Source of the DNA: Chthoniobacterales bacterium
Lineage (GTDB): Bacteria > Verrucomicrobiota > Verrucomicrobiia > Chthoniobacterales > Chthoniobacteraceae
Length of the DNA: 64,000 nt
Assembly: GCA_038207335.1 (NCBI GenBank)
Contig: JBBQZX010000018.1
Coordinates: forward strand, 1 to 64,000
Direction of reading: 5' to 3'
Shown here: piece by piece, positions 15,001 to 21,000 of the stretch
How the letters are laid out: every line of letters begins with the position of its first letter
How positions within the stretch are numbered: the stretch's first letter is position 1
Position numbers: made by a program

Positions 15001-18000
15001 GTCTGGAAACACCAGCCGCTCCGTCGCCCCATTCCCACCGACGCACGGCACACGGCACAGCAGTGCATCCCCCGCGACCTGCCCCGGCACCGCGCTCGCA
15101 TCGAGTTGAAACACCAATTTGTGCCGCGCCAGCGTCCGTAAATACTGCGGATACGGCAGCCGCTTTTCCACCACACGCAGCAGCCCCTCGGGATACCGCA
15201 GCGCCGCAATCCACCGCCGCCCGCGCCATCCATCCACATTGAAAACCGTCACCGCCTCCTGCATCGCCTCCGCGATTTGCCGCAGCGCGAGCAGAGCTGC
15301 CACATGATTACGCGAAGCCGTCCCCGGCTCGCGCGTTCCGAGAAAAATTCCGCGCCGCTCCTCGATCGGATGCGAAAAATCCCAACGCGAATCCTCCACC
15401 GGATACGGCGTCGGAATGAATTCCACCGCCCGCGCGCCCGCACCGAGATAGAGCTGCACGAGGTCCGGCACAGCCGCGATCGCGCCATCTGCGCGTTCGC
15501 AGATTTCGTGGAAAAGTCGCAGTTTCGCGGAATTCGCGAGCAGCCCCGCGATTTGAAATGCGCCCGATTCCTTGAACGAAACCGCCACCGTTTTCCCCTC
15601 GCGCCGCAGATCGAGCATCACCTGTCGGCACGTCTTCAGGTCATTCCGCAGCAGCAGCAGCACAGCGCCCCTGCCCGCCGCAATCGCCGCGTCTTTCCGA
15701 TAAAATCCGCCGCCCGTGCACGCCGCGAACGCGTGAAAATTCACCGGCGGATGCACCGCGTCATCCGGTACTCCCGCGACATCGGGGAAATGCTGCTCCG
15801 GGTCGCGTCCGCCGTGATTGAGAACTGCGATTTTCATCGCCCCATCCGTCGCGGAAGATCCAAAGAAAAGCGAGCCGCGCGGCTGGAGAAGTGCGGCGTT
15901 TCAATATCCCCGGCGCCACTCCATTATCGCTGTTTCGTGACTCCCGGCTCCCCAGCCCAAAAATCCCATCTGCTCGCCGCTCTGCTCGCGGTGGCCATCT
16001 CCGCCGTCGCTCTCGCCGCGGCGCTCGCATGGTGCGACCAGCTCGAGACGCGCTACATCCACGCGATCGCGCCCGAGTTCACCGAGGAAAAGCTCCAGGG
16101 CGTCGCGCTCCAGCGGCACGCCTTCGCCGAGCCCGACCTGCTCGTCCTCTACGGCAGCTCCGAGCTCGTGAAGGAAATGCCGAACAACGCGTCGCAGTTT
16201 TTTCAAGATTACCCGACCGGCTTCCGCGTCTTCCCGGTCGGCAAACCCGGCACTTCATCCCTCGCCATATTGCAGAAAGTCGCGGCTGTCGGCGGCGACA
16301 TCCGCGGCGAAAAAACAGCCTACTCGATGTCGCCCGGCTGGTTCTTCACCGAGACATTCGACCCGACCTGGTATGAGGGGAATTTCTCCGCGCTCCAGGC
16401 ATTCGAGCTCACCTTCAACAGCCACCTCAGCCACCGTCTCAAGCGCGATGTCGCGCGCAGGATGCTCGCATTTCCAAAGACGATCGACGGCAGGCCGCTG
16501 CTCGATTTCGGCCTGCGCCACCTCGCTGGCGACACCGCGCTCGACCGCTTCCTCTACGGCCTCGCGTGGCCGCTGGGCCGCATGAAAGTCGGCGTCGGAC
16601 GCGCACAGGACCACTTCGAGACGGCGCTGCACATCCTCGATGAAGACGAGCAATTGAACCCAAATCCCACACACGGATTACGCGCACTGAATTGGAACCA
16701 AATCCTCAAGCAAGCGGCGCGCTTCGCCAATGCCGCCTCCGTGCAGGCAAAGAAAAACGAGGTGAAACGCAAAAATCTGCCACGCGCCTCACGCGACAAA
16801 ACATTCATCACCGAGATGAGCCGCGCGCACGAGTGGACCGATGTCGAGCTGCTCATGCGCACATTCAACGAACTCGGCGCAAAGCCGCTCCTGCTCTCCA
16901 TGCCGATCGAGGACATCCGGCTCGAAGTCTATGGCATCTCGCCCGACGCCCGCACCGCATACCTCGACCGCCTGCACATGCTCGCCGGCAGATACGACAT
17001 CCCGCTCGTGGACTTCCGCGACCACGAAAAAGACAACGGCTTCACCGTCGATTTCCTCGACCACCTCAGCGGCGAAGGCTGGCTCTACTACAACAAAGTG
17101 CTCGACGATTTTTACCACGACCGCCTCCAAAAATTGTGAACATCGTGCTATCGGCCTGCCTCTAAATCCTCTCGAATTTTTCTCATGTCTCCCACCGACC
17201 GAATCCTCGATATTCTCGCCAACTCCGCCGAAACCGACGAAGTCCGCACCAATCCCGACCTCGCGCTCTACGACCTGCAGGTGCTCGATTCCATGAAGAC
17301 CGTCGAGCTCATCGTCGCCTTCTCCAGCGAGCTCGGCGTCGAGATTTCCCCCGCCGAATTCGAGCGCGAAAAGTGGGCCACTCCGCGCCTCCTCGTCGCC
17401 GATGTCCTCAGCCGCATGAACCCGTAAAATGATCGCACACTGGATCGAAAATCACCCACGGCTGCGCTCCGGCGTGCGACTCACGCTGCTCACCATTTAC
17501 TACCTCGCCGTCATCGCCGGCCTCGTCGTCCTCTACGGTCGCGGCGATTTCTCCACGCCCGCGTTCGTCTATCAGGGCTTCTAAAAATCACCCGTGCACC
17601 TCCTCGACCGCATCGACCACTGGGGACGCGTCGCGCCCGAGCGCCCCGCCCACATCAGCGGCGAACGCGTCCTCACGTACGGCGAATTGCTCGCCCGCTC
17701 CGACGCCCTCGCATCGTGGATTCTCGATGAATTCGGCGACGACAGCGCGCCCGTTGCCGTCTCCGGCCACAAGGAGCCCGAGATGCTCATCGCCTTTCTC
17801 GCTGCGGTAAAATCGGGCCGCCCCTACGTCCCGATCGACCAGTCCATCCCCGCTCATCGCGTCGAGCGCATCGTGCAAACCGCGCGCGCCGGAGTCGTCC
17901 TCACGCCGGCGCGCATCGCCGAGGAATCCCGCGCGCGCCGAGCCGTCCAACCGCGACGTGTCGATGGCACCGATCCATTCTACATCCTCTTCACCTCCGG

Positions 18001-21000
18001 CAGCACCGGCGAGCCAAAGGGCGTCGTCATCACGCTCGAAAATCTCACCGCATTCGTCACATGGATGCTCGCCGAGCAAGCATTCAAGCCACTCGGCGAG
18101 GTATTTCTGAATCAGGCACCGTTCTCCTTCGACCTCTCCGTGATGGACCTTTACTCGAGCCTCGCGACCGGCGGCACGCTCTTCAGCATCACAAAAGACG
18201 AAGTTGCGAACCTCAAAAATCTCTACCTCGCGCTCGCCCGTTCCGGCGTCACGACATGGGTTTCCACACCGTCGTTCGCGCAGATGTGTCTCATCGAGCG
18301 CACGTTCACTTCCACGATGCTCCCCTCGATCCAGCGCTTCCTTTTCTGCGGCGAAACGCTCGCGCCCGAGACCGCCTCGCAACTCATCGAGCGCTTCCCA
18401 TCCGCCGAAGTCTGGAACACATACGGCCCCACCGAGGCGACCGTCGCAACCACCTCCATCCGCGTCGATCGCGACATCCTCGCGCGCCACTCGCCGCTCC
18501 CCGTCGGCCTTGAGATGCCCGGCACGCGCGTCTTCATCCGTGGTGAAAATGGCGAGCAAGTCCCCGATGGCGAGCGGGGCGAAATCATAATCGCCGGTCC
18601 AAATGTCAGTCCCGGATACCTCGGCCGCGAAGACCTCACCGCAAAAGCATTCGAGCAACTCGACTGTGTCCGCGCCTACCGCACCGGCGATTGGGGACGC
18701 GAGCGCGACGGGCTCATTTTCTTCGAGGGCCGCATGGATGGGCAGGTGAAAGTAAACGGCTACCGCATCGAACTCGGCGACCTCGAGGCGAATCTCCGCG
18801 CACTGCCGGAGGTCGCCGACGCCGTCGTCCTGCCCGTCATCAAAGGCGGGCGCACCGACTCACTTGCCGCATTCATCGTCCCCACCGTCGCACGCACCGG
18901 CTCCGATTTCGAGTTTTCCAGCCAGCTCAAAATCGGCCTCGCCGCCCGCGTCCCCGCCTACATGGTGCCGCGCAAATTCAAATTCCTCGACGCCTTCCCG
19001 ATGACCGCCAATGGAAAGGCCGACCGCCGCAAACTCGCTGAATTGCTGTAACTCGGCGCGCGCGGCGATTCGCCCTCGCGACCGCGCGCCCTCGCGGTGA
19101 TGCTCCCTCGGTGCCAGCGTTTCGTAATTTTCTCACCGCCGTTTCTGTCATCACCCTCTGCGCCTCCGCGACCGCCCGCGACTTCGACCTACGCCGCGAC
19201 ACCTTCGCATTTTCAAACGACACCGTCCTGAAATACGGCGTCGATGAGCAGGGCACTCTTCACATCAACAAACGCGACAAGCCCGTCGAGTTCGGCCACC
19301 GCTGCTTCGTCCTCGCGCGTTCTGTGCTGCAATTCCACCAGTTCGTCCGCTTCGAGCCATCGCAGCCACGCACCTCACGCGAGAAATATCACGAACTCAT
19401 CCGCCGCATCGGCCGCATCCCGGTCTGGAGCAGCCGCGAGGAAAAAGTCGTTATCCCCGGATACCCCGACCTCCACGCCTTCTCCATCGCCTACGAGGGC
19501 CTGCTGAAAGAAGACCTCGGCAACTGGCTTCCCACCTACTTCCGCGTCGGCAACTGGCGCATGATGACCGGCCACCCGCGCGCCGGTCAGGCCGCCGGCG
19601 CACGCTGGCTCGCCGACTCCATGGAGCAGCAAAAGCTCCGCGCCATCTACATGTCACGCTTTCCGTGGATGAACCACGCCGTCGTCGTCTATGACATGCA
19701 GCGCCGCGCCAACGGCGACATCCATTTCATTGTCTATGACCCGAACTATCCCAACGCCCCGAGCTCCGTTGATTACATCGCAGCGCAGCGCAGCTTCGAC
19801 TTTCCAAAGCGTTGGTACTTCCCCGGCGGCCGCGTGAACGTCATGCGCATCTTCATCTCACCGCTTCACTGAATGCTTGCCACCGCCCACGGTGCCGAGC
19901 CGTCCATCCTGCTGCTTATCCCCTTTGCCATCCTTCTGCTGGCCATCGCCATCGGTCCGCTCGCGATCAAGCACACATGGGAGCGCTACTACCATTGGGT
20001 CGCGATAGTTCTCGGGTCCATTACCCTCACCTACTACCTCACAGTCCTGCGCCAACCCGAGCCGATGCTGCACACCGCGATCGAATATGGCAGCTTCATT
20101 GTGTTCGTCGGCTCCTTGTTCATTGTCACCGGCGGCATCCACATTCGGGTGAAAGGCGAAGCGACTCCTGGCATCAATTGTCTCTATCTTCTCATCGGCG
20201 CAGTCCTTGCAAATGTCATCGGCACTACCGGCGCATCCATGCTCCTCATCCGTCCTTGGATTCGGATGAATCGCTACCGCATCACCGCCTTTCACATCGT
20301 CTTCTTCATCTTCATCATCAGCAACGTCGGCGGCTGTCTCACACCCATCGGCGATCCGCCGTTGTTCCTTGGTTACTTAAAAGGCGTGCCTTTCTGGTGG
20401 GTTCTAGCTCAGTGCTGGCAGGCATGGCTCATTGGCGTCGGGATGCTCATCGGCATGTTCTACTTCGCAGACAACCGGAATTTTCTCCGTGCGCCGAAAG
20501 ACATCCGCGACAAGGAAACCGCGCACGAAGAATGGCGCTTCGATGGGCTTCACAACTTGATCTTCATCACATTGATCATCATCGGCGTTTTTCTTCCACT
20601 CGGCTGGCGTGAGGTGGTCATGACCGGTGCGACCCTCAGCTCGTGGTTTTCGACCAAGAGGAAAATCCACGAGTCCAACGAATTCAACTTTCACCCCATC
20701 AAAGAAGTCGCATGGCTCTTCGCTGGCATCTTCATCACGATGGTTCCCGCCTTGGGCTACTTGGAAAGGCACGCGACAGAGCTGGGTCTCCACAGCGAGA
20801 CACAGTTCTTCTGGCTCACCGGCGGACTTTCCGCAGCGCTGGATAACGCTCCGACCTATCTCGCATTTTTAGCTTCGGCCTTTGGACTCTTCGGCCTCGA
20901 CATTAACCATCCAACCGACGTGGCGACCTTCGTCACTACGCACTCGAACTTCCTCCGCGCCATCTCGCTCGGCGCCGTCTTTTTCGGTGCGATGACCTAC

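Follow-up and report, generated by a model that had tools for sequence, protein, structure and literature searches.

In Vibrio cholerae, lipid A is glycylated by the AlmEFG system, which transfers glycine by a cytoplasmic-side LpxL-like transferase and comprises no MBOAT protein, shuttle peptide or SGNH protein. The locus described here resembles AlmEFG in that an adenylation enzyme and a carrier protein would decorate a diderm envelope with an amino acid. With the DltXABCD system of Bacillota (PMC12148441), it shares all five components, the DltA pocket, the DltC serine, the DltB histidine, the FxYxxF tail of DltX and the DltD fold with its serine and histidine. Unlike the Bacillota system, it resides in a diderm, LpxC-bearing host in which teichoic-acid synthases were not found, its proteins belong to a separate clade, DltD occurs as multiple paralogues and DltB often carries Ig-like domains.

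A dlt-type system in a diderm is not without precedent: such systems have been published for Dickeya and Pectobacterium (PMC3544676, PMC5541007) and, as dra, for Bordetella (PMC9858536). They are compared here by published descriptions, in the excerpts cited. According to these excerpts, the dlt genes of Dickeya, Pectobacterium and Photorhabdus likewise occur in an LPS-containing diderm; polymyxin caused 99% mortality of a Dickeya dltB mutant (PMC3544676), and resistance is attributed to Dlt “probably by modifying” LPS, the suspected acceptor (PMC5541007, citing Pandin 2016). The Dickeya “dltD” also bears the annotation pbpG (D-Ala-D-Ala carboxypeptidase), and a mutant in it is described as matching the wild type in resistance (PMC3544676), whereas the DltD analyzed here is a genuine SGNH protein of PF04914 that has been conserved and has multiplied. 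By the same accounts, Dickeya-type dlt genes are found in a few plant or insect pathogens, in contrast to about 70% of a free-living family here. In Bordetella pertussis, dra is described as placing D-alanine in a Gram-negative envelope and is tied to antimicrobial-peptide resistance, as proposed here (PMC9858536). The nature of the Dlt acceptor in bacteria without teichoic acids is a question dating from the Dickeya and Bordetella work, and in the present lineage free-living bacteria stably inherit a full system that includes a true DltD. Literature searches on dltD in Verrucomicrobia returned nothing whose title or abstract addressed the subject, and those on dlt in Udaeobacter and on Chloroflex dltB and the cell envelope returned nothing, most subscription journals lying outside the scope of all three.

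The dlt genes and their conserved motifs

Within the window, the whole 64,000-nucleotide stretch analyzed, four intact ORFs on the plus strand form the dltD-dltC-dltX-dltA operon that had been reported, with unchanged boundaries. The dltD gene (15937..17139) encodes a 400 aa, N-terminally anchored SGNH-fold protein predicted to be a D-alanyl transferase (TIGR04092, 155.4 bits at a cut-off of 150; PF04914, E 2e-47); its GTG start was assigned by homology, and the open frame begins upstream at 15277. It is followed by dltC (17185..17427), coding for an 80 aa putative D-alanyl carrier protein with the phosphopantetheine site Ser36 (LDSM), which exceeds the cut-offs of NF003464 (77.5 vs. 68) and TIGR01688 (70.4 vs. 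52.35). The predicted acyl-shuttle microprotein DltX (17429..17584; 51 aa, single TM segment) scores 26.1 against PF12459 (cut-off 25) and terminates in FVYQGF with Tyr48, confirming the YQGF end noted before. The last gene, dltA (17594..19051; 485 aa), encodes a putative D-alanine-DltC ligase that scores 559.8 against NF003417 (cut-off 476) and, with 544.2, slightly below the TIGR01734 cut-off of 559.85. The displaced dltB (minus strand of contig C7, 50156-51337; 393 aa, MBOAT) and the second dltD, dltD2 (contig C38, 11243-12454; 403 aa, 47% identity to dltD), proved to be real and intact ORFs as well. The claimed identity of 42-48% to Bacillus DltA and DltB agrees with our values of 43-47% for Bacillaceae DltA and 42-47% for annotated Bacillaceae DltB, the latter over 98-99% of the length. 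A scan for sigma-70-type promoters gave no sites (0.5 expected).

The DltA stretches NQAPFSFDLSVM, FLFCGE and NTYGPTEATVA of the substrate pocket are identical in Bacillus cereus DltA, and the best PDB matches are the DltA structures 3fcc/3dhv (E 8e-146), together with 3e7w. The Asp of FSFD and the Cys of FCGE are what we take to be the determinants of D-Ala selectivity, and FCGE is kept in 45/45 DltA. Similarly, the DS motif is present in all 59 DltC extracted and GxWH in all 56 DltB (GLWH322 in the host genome). The DltX tyrosine is invariant in 32/32 aligned homologues; 57 of 58 distinct clade sequences end in F-x-Y-x-x-F, the remaining one in Y-x-Y-x-x-F. DltB itself ends in FSGRLSAHAAH and has no FxYxxF tail of its own. 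On the DltB of many relatives, one to three unannotated Ig-like domains are found at the C-terminus; they matched no Pfam family, their best Atlas value of 0.83 is a lead only, and a fold search retrieved generic Ig/FN3 sandwiches (best Z 7.8).

DltD shows only 21-27% identity to Bacillota DltD and has a single TM segment that begins near residue 8. Its AF2 model (pLDDT 93.8) nevertheless superimposes on four solved DltD structures (6o93, 6pfx, 3bma, 7dxm) with Z 31.6-33.5 and rmsd 3.4-3.8 over 334-342 aligned residues, the next-best SGNH match reaching Z 11.2. Ser74 and His376 are kept, whereas the Gln of the Bacillota SPQWF motif is replaced by Gly134, and block V reads D-F-L-D-H instead of the canonical D-x-x-H, with D372 and D375 as candidate triad Asp residues. 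Across the clade, Ser and His are each retained in 105/106 DltD, while the SPQWF Gln occurs in 1/106 vs. 4/4 Bacillota DltD; in a docking study of L. plantarum DltD, this Gln was placed against the glycerol-phosphate chain (PMC13653941). The position of the acid before His varies, with Asp at -3 in 15 of the 106 sequences, at -4 in 57 and at -1 in 49, and Udaeobacter-type DltD carry no acid at -1, -3 or -4. The scarcity of the triad Asp at -3 and the acid-free Udaeobacter-type proteins suggest that chemistry or efficiency may differ.

Distribution and ancestry of the system

DltD was found in 106/150 genomes of the family and in samples of 50/250 genomes of the order and 0/400 of the rest of the phylum (two matches sub-threshold), in line with the survey's finding that it is almost confined to Chthoniobacterales within the phylum. 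The presence of all of DltX/A/B/C/D, each intact, in a host with LpxC is borne out. The distribution over the order is patchy, with 6 of 16 families sampled and, for example, 25/201 genomes of family f3 positive. The lineage consists of free-living, Gram-negative soil and freshwater bacteria, and the system is also carried by Ca. Udaeobacter, being seen in some Ca. Udaeobacter-type soil bacteria.

The separation of dltB from the operon, a caveat raised earlier, does not hold among most relatives. DltD was detected in 107 genomes, DltB in 99 and both in 98, and in 71 of these 98 dltB lies less than 5 kb from dltD; the split, which is shared with the sister genomes G005 and G010, is therefore a recent, local rearrangement. 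All five genes are contiguous in 15/20 family loci. Their order in the family, D-C-X-A-B, differs from the X-A-B-C-D order of Bacillota; families f75, f76 and f81 have C-D-X-A-B, which is X-A-B-C-D circularly permuted.

The designation “Firmicute-type” is justified for gene content but not for kinship, as the nearest clade stands apart from Bacillota (UFB 100). Among its members are proteins that carry the labels Chloroflexia, Chloroflexi and Anaerolineae, and DltA identity amounts to 58-66% to Chloroflexota-labelled relatives vs. 47% to Bacillus. Organism names were available for 4/30 clade-mates, so the Chloroflexota link rests on P0304, P0373, P0376 and P0530; moreover, MAG labels can be wrong, as indicated by DltB P0480, which is labelled Binatia and shows 73% identity to the Udaeobacter-type query. 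Conclusions on DltB were drawn from a careful 42-row tree, with C-terminal extensions excluded, that followed a 79-row quick tree. Families f75, f76 and f81 are separate from f1, f3 and f77 in the DltB tree; several independent transfers into the order were considered as an explanation and set aside, because the AU test leaves a single clade standing (p 0.245).

The spread of the genes over three contigs of a bin had been named as a weakness and, together with the patchiness within the order, would fit contamination of the bin or a recent transfer that is decaying and without function. Composition argues otherwise: tetranucleotide correlation with the whole genome is 0.996 for C18, 0.998 for C7 and 0.987 for C38, and GC3 of the six dlt genes (0.79-0.83) is like that of ispH (0.82) and topA (0.79). 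In addition, the frequency of DltD in the family, the intact motifs and the fully supported clades that the families form in the DltB and DltA trees speak against this reading, which is largely refuted and retains next to no credibility. The cassette is lineage-native.

Candidate acceptors of D-alanine

By analogy with the Bacillota mechanism, from which both chemistry and D-Ala specificity are taken, the genes very probably encode a Dlt relay for D-alanylation. In this relay, DltA would adenylate D-alanine and load it onto Ser36 of DltC, DltB (His322) would pass it across the inner membrane onto DltX Tyr48, and membrane-anchored DltD (Ser74/His376) would esterify it onto an acceptor exposed on the periplasmic side of that membrane; the orphan DltD2 probably also esterifies an acceptor. 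Each D-alanine ester would add positive charge to the envelope and, as in Dickeya, would likely help the cells withstand cationic peptides, cations or acid. A variant in which the relay moves glycine, L-alanine or D-serine, or performs altered chemistry such as amide formation, would accommodate the loss of the DltD Gln, the frequent loss of the triad Asp and the TIGR01734 score just below cut-off; given a DltA amino-acid pocket identical to that of the D-Ala-specific B. cereus enzyme, we consider it highly improbable.

The host genome contains LpxC, an RfaE-type heptose nucleotidyltransferase, alanine racemase and nine PMT_2/GT-C proteins above cut-off. TagB/F, TagD, LicD, LCP, MdoG, MprF and a multi-TM LtaS/MdoB/EptA-type protein were not found in this genome, which is 94.7% complete; teichoic-acid genes were sought with PF04464, by inspection of PF01467 and PF00884 matches and with an LtaS HMM, leaving out the Stealth family. 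The view of a lipid A-type host without detectable TagB/F, TagD or LtaS is thereby corroborated. A teichoic-acid-like polyol-phosphate polymer whose enzymes are too divergent for the models, with Dlt working as in Bacillota, would explain why all canonical components, DltX and a genuine SGNH-type DltD among them, were long retained. However, apart from the genes missing above (TagB/F, TagD, LicD and, independently of Stealth, an LtaS/MdoB-type protein), an HMM of five Bacillus LtaS-family proteins retrieved soluble sulfatases only from the host, and family-wide matches are rare (TagB/F above cut-off in 1/151 genomes, weak LtaS-like matches in at least 7/151, with up to 8 candidates scored per genome), so that we give such a polymer a very slim chance.

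As no polyol-phosphate synthesis genes were found, we tentatively favor, with slightly less than even confidence, a non-teichoic, periplasm-exposed acceptor, namely LPS in transit, modified at hydroxyls of its core or O-glycan, or a different lipid-linked glycan of the surface. The near-absence of the SPQWF Gln from clade DltD and the Dickeya precedent count in favor of this reading. Chloroflexota mostly lack LPS. Because the same dlt clade comprises Chloroflexota-labelled proteins, the ancestral acceptor was probably not LPS.

The span of this clade, from Chloroflexota-labelled to Chthoniobacterales sequences, would also suit an acceptor in the cell wall (peptidoglycan itself or a polysaccharide linked to it) or a glycosylated protein of the periplasm or outer membrane, common to the Chloroflexota-type relatives and served by the same relay, with DltD paralogues possibly differing in acceptor. 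MBOAT-SGNH pairs acylate peptidoglycan in Gram-negatives (PMC12148441), the host has the PMT_2/GT-C proteins mentioned, and the D-alanylated component of Bordetella is protease-susceptible, judging by the title of Taneja 2013 (PMC9858536), a point that also counts against LPS. Glycosyltransferase-related genes adjoin dlt in non-verrucomicrobial metagenome loci, but none is conserved beside dlt in the family, and no LCP ligase was found in the host; on balance, acceptors of this kind appear unlikely. A membrane lipid (phosphatidylglycerol, cardiolipin or a glycolipid), with Dlt substituting for MprF as aminoacyl-lipid synthase, would be available in monoderm and diderm hosts alike and within reach of the inner-membrane anchored DltD, and D-alanyl-phosphatidylglycerol is reported from B. 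subtilis in the excerpt cited (PMC4837988). It also speaks for a lipid that MprF was not found in the host and occurs in only 4/151 family genomes; these are too few for MprF to count as a mutually exclusive alternative to Dlt, and it is rare in dlt-negative genera too, so that no clear mutual exclusion is seen. Moreover, the Gln that would bind the glycerol-phosphate shared by phosphatidylglycerol and LTA has been lost, which leaves a lipid acceptor rather improbable.

A broader proposal, somewhat unlikely, is that Chloroflexota and Chthoniobacterales (Ca. Udaeobacter among them) share a distinct non-Bacillota Dlt branch whose substrate is an envelope polymer of new chemistry, other than teichoic acid. 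A single loader, DltA/B/C/X, might then feed several divergent DltD paralogues whose active site is remodelled (Ser-His without the Gln, and with an Asp that is movable or absent), each with its own acceptor, and the Ig-like domain of DltB might organize a periplasmic complex. If so, envelope D-alanylation would be a common trait of dominant soil bacteria; relatives of the very abundant Ca. Udaeobacter are among the carriers. An active system would point to a cationic modification, so far undescribed, of the envelopes of Chthoniobacteraceae and of some soil bacteria of the Ca. Udaeobacter type, and would bear on how they tolerate metals, acid or cationic antibiotics. Sister genera with and without dlt occur naturally and provide a comparison, and the DltD variants probe which active-site residues are needed.

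Gene neighborhood of the dlt loci

No acceptor gene was found among conserved neighbors of the family dlt loci and 40 further loci of orphan dltD paralogues, several of which may occur per genome among relatives. The orphan paralogues lie mostly amid housekeeping genes; in the family, the dlt operon, too, is situated amid such genes and outside LPS or glycan clusters, an observation that speaks against LPS as acceptor. In non-verrucomicrobial metagenome loci, dlt frequently adjoins GT2, YfhO or GT-C-like genes. The divergent gene upstream of the operon (14824-15837) is GT-B/GT4-like (Atlas features 0.99 to Verrucomicrobiota clusters). It was rejected as a dlt partner and speaks against the cell-wall and protein acceptors discussed above, since it is present in 126/151 family genomes, including dlt-negative genera (g15 6/6, g16 2/2, g17 3/3), and adjoins dltD in few. 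The charge of DltD was likewise dismissed as a clue to the acceptor, as its soluble part has pI values between about 5.3 and 9.7 across clade sequences, overlapping with those of three Bacillota proteins (6.5-9.2). A predicted complex of DltD2 and DltX scored 0.10, the mark being 0.32. The most recurrent non-dlt neighbor is a PHP-domain gene convergent with dltB, present at 16/30 dltB loci.

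Genomic setting of the dlt genes

The dlt set described in the survey's finding is real and intact. Four co-oriented genes, dltD (15937-17139), dltC (17185-17427), dltX (17429-17584) and dltA (17594-19051), are all uninterrupted and each exceeds the cut-off of one curated Dlt model: TIGR04092 for DltD (155.4 versus 150), NF003464 for DltC (77.5 versus 68), PF12459 for DltX (26.1 versus 25) and NF003417 for DltA (559.8 versus 476; against TIGR01734, DltA scored 544.2, slightly below the cut-off of 559.85). The displaced dltB (C7:50156-51337, minus strand; intact ORF, 393 aa) and the second dltD (C38:11243-12454; intact, 403 aa, 47% identical to the DltD of the window) were also confirmed. 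The concern that these genes lie on three contigs of a bin is contradicted by their composition, as the tetranucleotide profiles of C18, C7 and C38 match that of the whole genome (r 0.996, 0.998 and 0.987) and the six dlt genes, with a GC3 of 0.79-0.83, do not differ in this respect from ispH and topA.

DltD is present in 106 and DltB in 98 of 150 Chthoniobacteraceae genomes, and each occurs in 47 of the 73 high-quality genomes (source genome counted). Both proteins are encoded in 98 genomes, in 71 of which the genes lie at most 5 kb apart on one contig, while some of the other 27, with dltB not near dltD, are fragmented assemblies. Of 20 family loci selected for long contigs and spread of genera, 15 carry the complete set side by side in the order D-C-X-A-B. 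The lack of dltB linkage noted in the survey thus holds for the source genome itself, but not for the family. A PHP-domain gene follows dltB in 16/30 dltB loci and still faces dltB in the source genome. In the sister genomes, G005 and G010, the set is split likewise, with the new upstream neighbour also present; the D-C-X-A block was therefore separated from dltB recently, in one sub-lineage.

Directly 3' of dltA, a 253-aa, probably exported protein without family match is encoded (19111-19872, plus strand); such a gene comes after the dlt genes in L121 and L122 as well. An LpxL-like lipid A acyltransferase gene (PF03279; 10823-12199, minus strand) is located about 4 kb upstream of dltD, and in relatives no such gene was seen as a conserved dlt neighbour. 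The minus strand also encodes a GT-B/GT4-like glycosyltransferase (14824-15837) of an uncharacterised Verrucomicrobiota family, without Pfam or NCBIfam match and kept in 126/151 family genomes, and an exported protein of 1393 aa that carries both lamin-tail domains and a CotH kinase domain (24339-28520).

Distribution and descent

DltD was detected in 50 of 250 sampled Chthoniobacterales genomes, covering six of 16 families (f1, 17/29; f76, 19/29; f77, 6/29; f3, 3/29; f81, 3/17; f75, 2/8), versus none over cut-off, and two weak matches below it, in 400 phylum genomes outside the order, a search whose control gave matches in B. subtilis and L. lactis and nowhere else. Its near-confinement to the order within the phylum is consequently upheld. 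In a larger f3 sample, DltD occurred in 25/201 genomes, concentrated in few genera. The gene order is D-C-X-A-B in f1 and f3, C-X-A-B with a convergent D in f77, and C-D-X-A-B in f75, f76 and f81, the last being a circular permutation of the X-A-B-C-D order of Bacillota. Metagenomes queried with an Anaerolineae-labelled DltB yielded 80 loci, most of them nearest to the f3 type; one of these DltB is 84% identical to a homologue annotated as DltB from Candidatus Udaeobacter sp. Among the looked-up homologue clusters, several have hundreds of members.

In a DltB tree of 42 rows, built with C-terminal tails excluded, every Chthoniobacterales sequence falls into one 35-row clade (100/99) separate from Bacillota. 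This clade also contains proteins labelled Chloroflexia, Chloroflexi and Anaerolineae, the Chloroflexota link resting on four MAG labels, and one labelled Candidatus Kaiserbacteria (CPR; P0136, on a 376-kb contig), a case of transfer or mislabelling. Families f1, f3 and f77 form a clade (96/84), each at 100, and the Udaeobacter DltB groups with f3 at 100/100; f75, f76 and f81 branch among the remaining rows, though a single clade for the order's sequences was not rejected (AU p 0.245). The DltA tree (30 rows) gave the same separation from Bacillota (100/100). For DltA of the source genome, identity is 66% to the locus whose DltB is labelled Chloroflexia, 58-64% to two similar loci and only 35-47% to Bacillota DltA. 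The designation Firmicute-type is hence apt for gene content (five components) and not for descent. The absence of the system elsewhere in the phylum implies horizontal gain, in one or more events, at or within Chthoniobacterales.

At their C-terminus, 23/52 Chthoniobacterales DltB, and non-verrucomicrobial relatives too, carry an extra domain (about 105 aa) with two nearly invariant flanking Cys; it was noted in L135 (14258-14572, plus strand), L152, L150, L147, L153, L160, L036, L049 and L051. Copy number ranges from one to three overall, with two or three in several non-verrucomicrobial DltB. It has no Pfam family and is predicted, with pLDDT 94.1, to form an Ig/FN3-like sandwich whose structural matches are generic (Z up to 7.8). 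Since the source genome lacks it altogether, the domain is regarded as accessory.

Conserved relay and altered DltD

Judged by its five protein components, the system belongs to Dlt and would work like it; of the known pathway, genes for making the teichoic-acid acceptor were not found. The amino-acid pocket stretches of DltA are identical to those of B. cereus DltA (3fcc/3dhv), and, Bacillota references included, FCGE is present in 45/45 DltA, GxWH in 56/56 DltB and DS in 59/59 DltC. DltX ends in FVYQGF, its Tyr invariant among homologues, which fits the FxYxxF shuttle motif described in PMC12148441. An alanine racemase is encoded. In structural comparison, the predicted DltD (pLDDT 93.8) reaches Z 31.6-33.5 with four solved structures of DltD, versus 11.2 for other SGNH proteins; with its single N-terminal TM segment, read by Bacillota topology, the catalytic domain should be periplasmic. 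That the system is non-functional is considered extremely improbable.

Among 106 clade DltD, which are related and hence non-independent, Ser and His are each kept in 105, whereas the Gln of SPQWF, placed by docking against the glycerol-phosphate chain (PMC13653941), occurs in 1/106 versus 4/4 Bacillota references. The DxxH Asp at -3 is found in 15/106, the block reading D-F-L-D-H in the source genome and, for example, R-H-Q-S-H in Udaeobacter-type DltD. While DltB is single (two matches in only 1/99 genomes), dltD often exists in several copies, some arranged in tandem and others standing as orphans amid housekeeping genes. Single operons with a tandem array of two or three divergent dltD occur in L241 and L242 (genus g12), L008 (G066), L135 and L164. 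In f76 loci (L248:2096-7330, L251, L253, L259, L260, L265, L134, L138, L140, L261), dltD, often with its own dltC, is located head-to-head with a PF00144 beta-lactamase-fold serine hydrolase, possibly a DltE/FmtA-like esterase, and an unannotated, GT-C-like membrane protein of 740-750 aa; in L261, the hydrolase comes after dltB. The source genome yielded only distant hydrolase relatives (25-29%) and no match for the membrane protein. A Lactobacillus helsingborgensis plasmid DltD (L145:4730-6988; 753 aa) carries a long, very basic C-terminal extension.

Candidate acceptors

The source genome (94.7% complete) encodes LpxC and an RfaE-type enzyme. Searches in it for TagB/F, TagD, LicD, LCP, MdoG and MprF found none, the negative for TagD resting on four CTP-transferase matches that sequence inspection identified as CoaD, NadD, RfaE-type and RibF. 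Every PF00884 match is a soluble sulfatase showing no more than two hydrophobic segments, and nothing beyond these was retrieved by an HMM built from five Bacillus LtaS-family proteins. The one WecG/TagA-family gene belongs to a family common in diderms (control list). Across 151 family genomes, TagB/F exceeded the cut-off in one and weak LtaS-like matches occurred in seven, the LtaS search scoring at most eight candidates per genome. The survey's statement that no teichoic-acid genes were found agrees with these results, and since they were not found here and are rare across the family, a canonical teichoic acid is an unlikely acceptor; a hidden polyol-phosphate polymer is judged very improbable.

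As acceptor we tentatively favor a lipid-linked glycan of the cell surface, either LPS in transit or a different one. Against LPS stand the Chloroflexota-labelled members of the dlt clade, as Chloroflexota mostly do not have LPS, and the finding that no LPS cluster is linked to dlt in the family. No gene neighbouring dlt or an orphan dltD names an acceptor. Peptidoglycan-linked or protein glycans rank second, as a rather doubtful option, a membrane lipid seems unlikely, and a relay carrying another acyl group improbable.

Dlt genes are known from the diderms Dickeya, Pectobacterium and Photorhabdus, with the substrate unidentified there; a Dickeya dltB mutant showed 99% mortality in polymyxin, and the "dltD" of Dickeya is, as a difference, also called pbpG (PMC3544676). 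Citing Pandin 2016, PMC5541007 states that dlt probably modifies LPS and that dltD is dispensable. The Bordetella dra locus (PMC9858536) and D-alanyl-PG (PMC4837988) are mentioned elsewhere, and the accessible part of PMC11279074 adds nothing further on diderm dlt. At the level of titles and abstracts, no report on a dlt system in Verrucomicrobia, Udaeobacter or Chloroflexota was found. Because Dlt in diderms is already known, the system is not categorically new; new are its family-wide inheritance, the separate clade with Chloroflexota-labelled relatives, the remodelled and multiplied DltD and the presence in Ca. Udaeobacter, making Chthoniobacterales dlt a good system for the open question of the Dlt acceptor in diderms. 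In single cases, dlt operons adjoin glycan genes: the second operon of G641 (f81; L255:3280-11680) has two GT-like genes and lpxB as neighbours, and the dlt operon of L160 lies inside a GT2/ABC-transporter glycan cluster.
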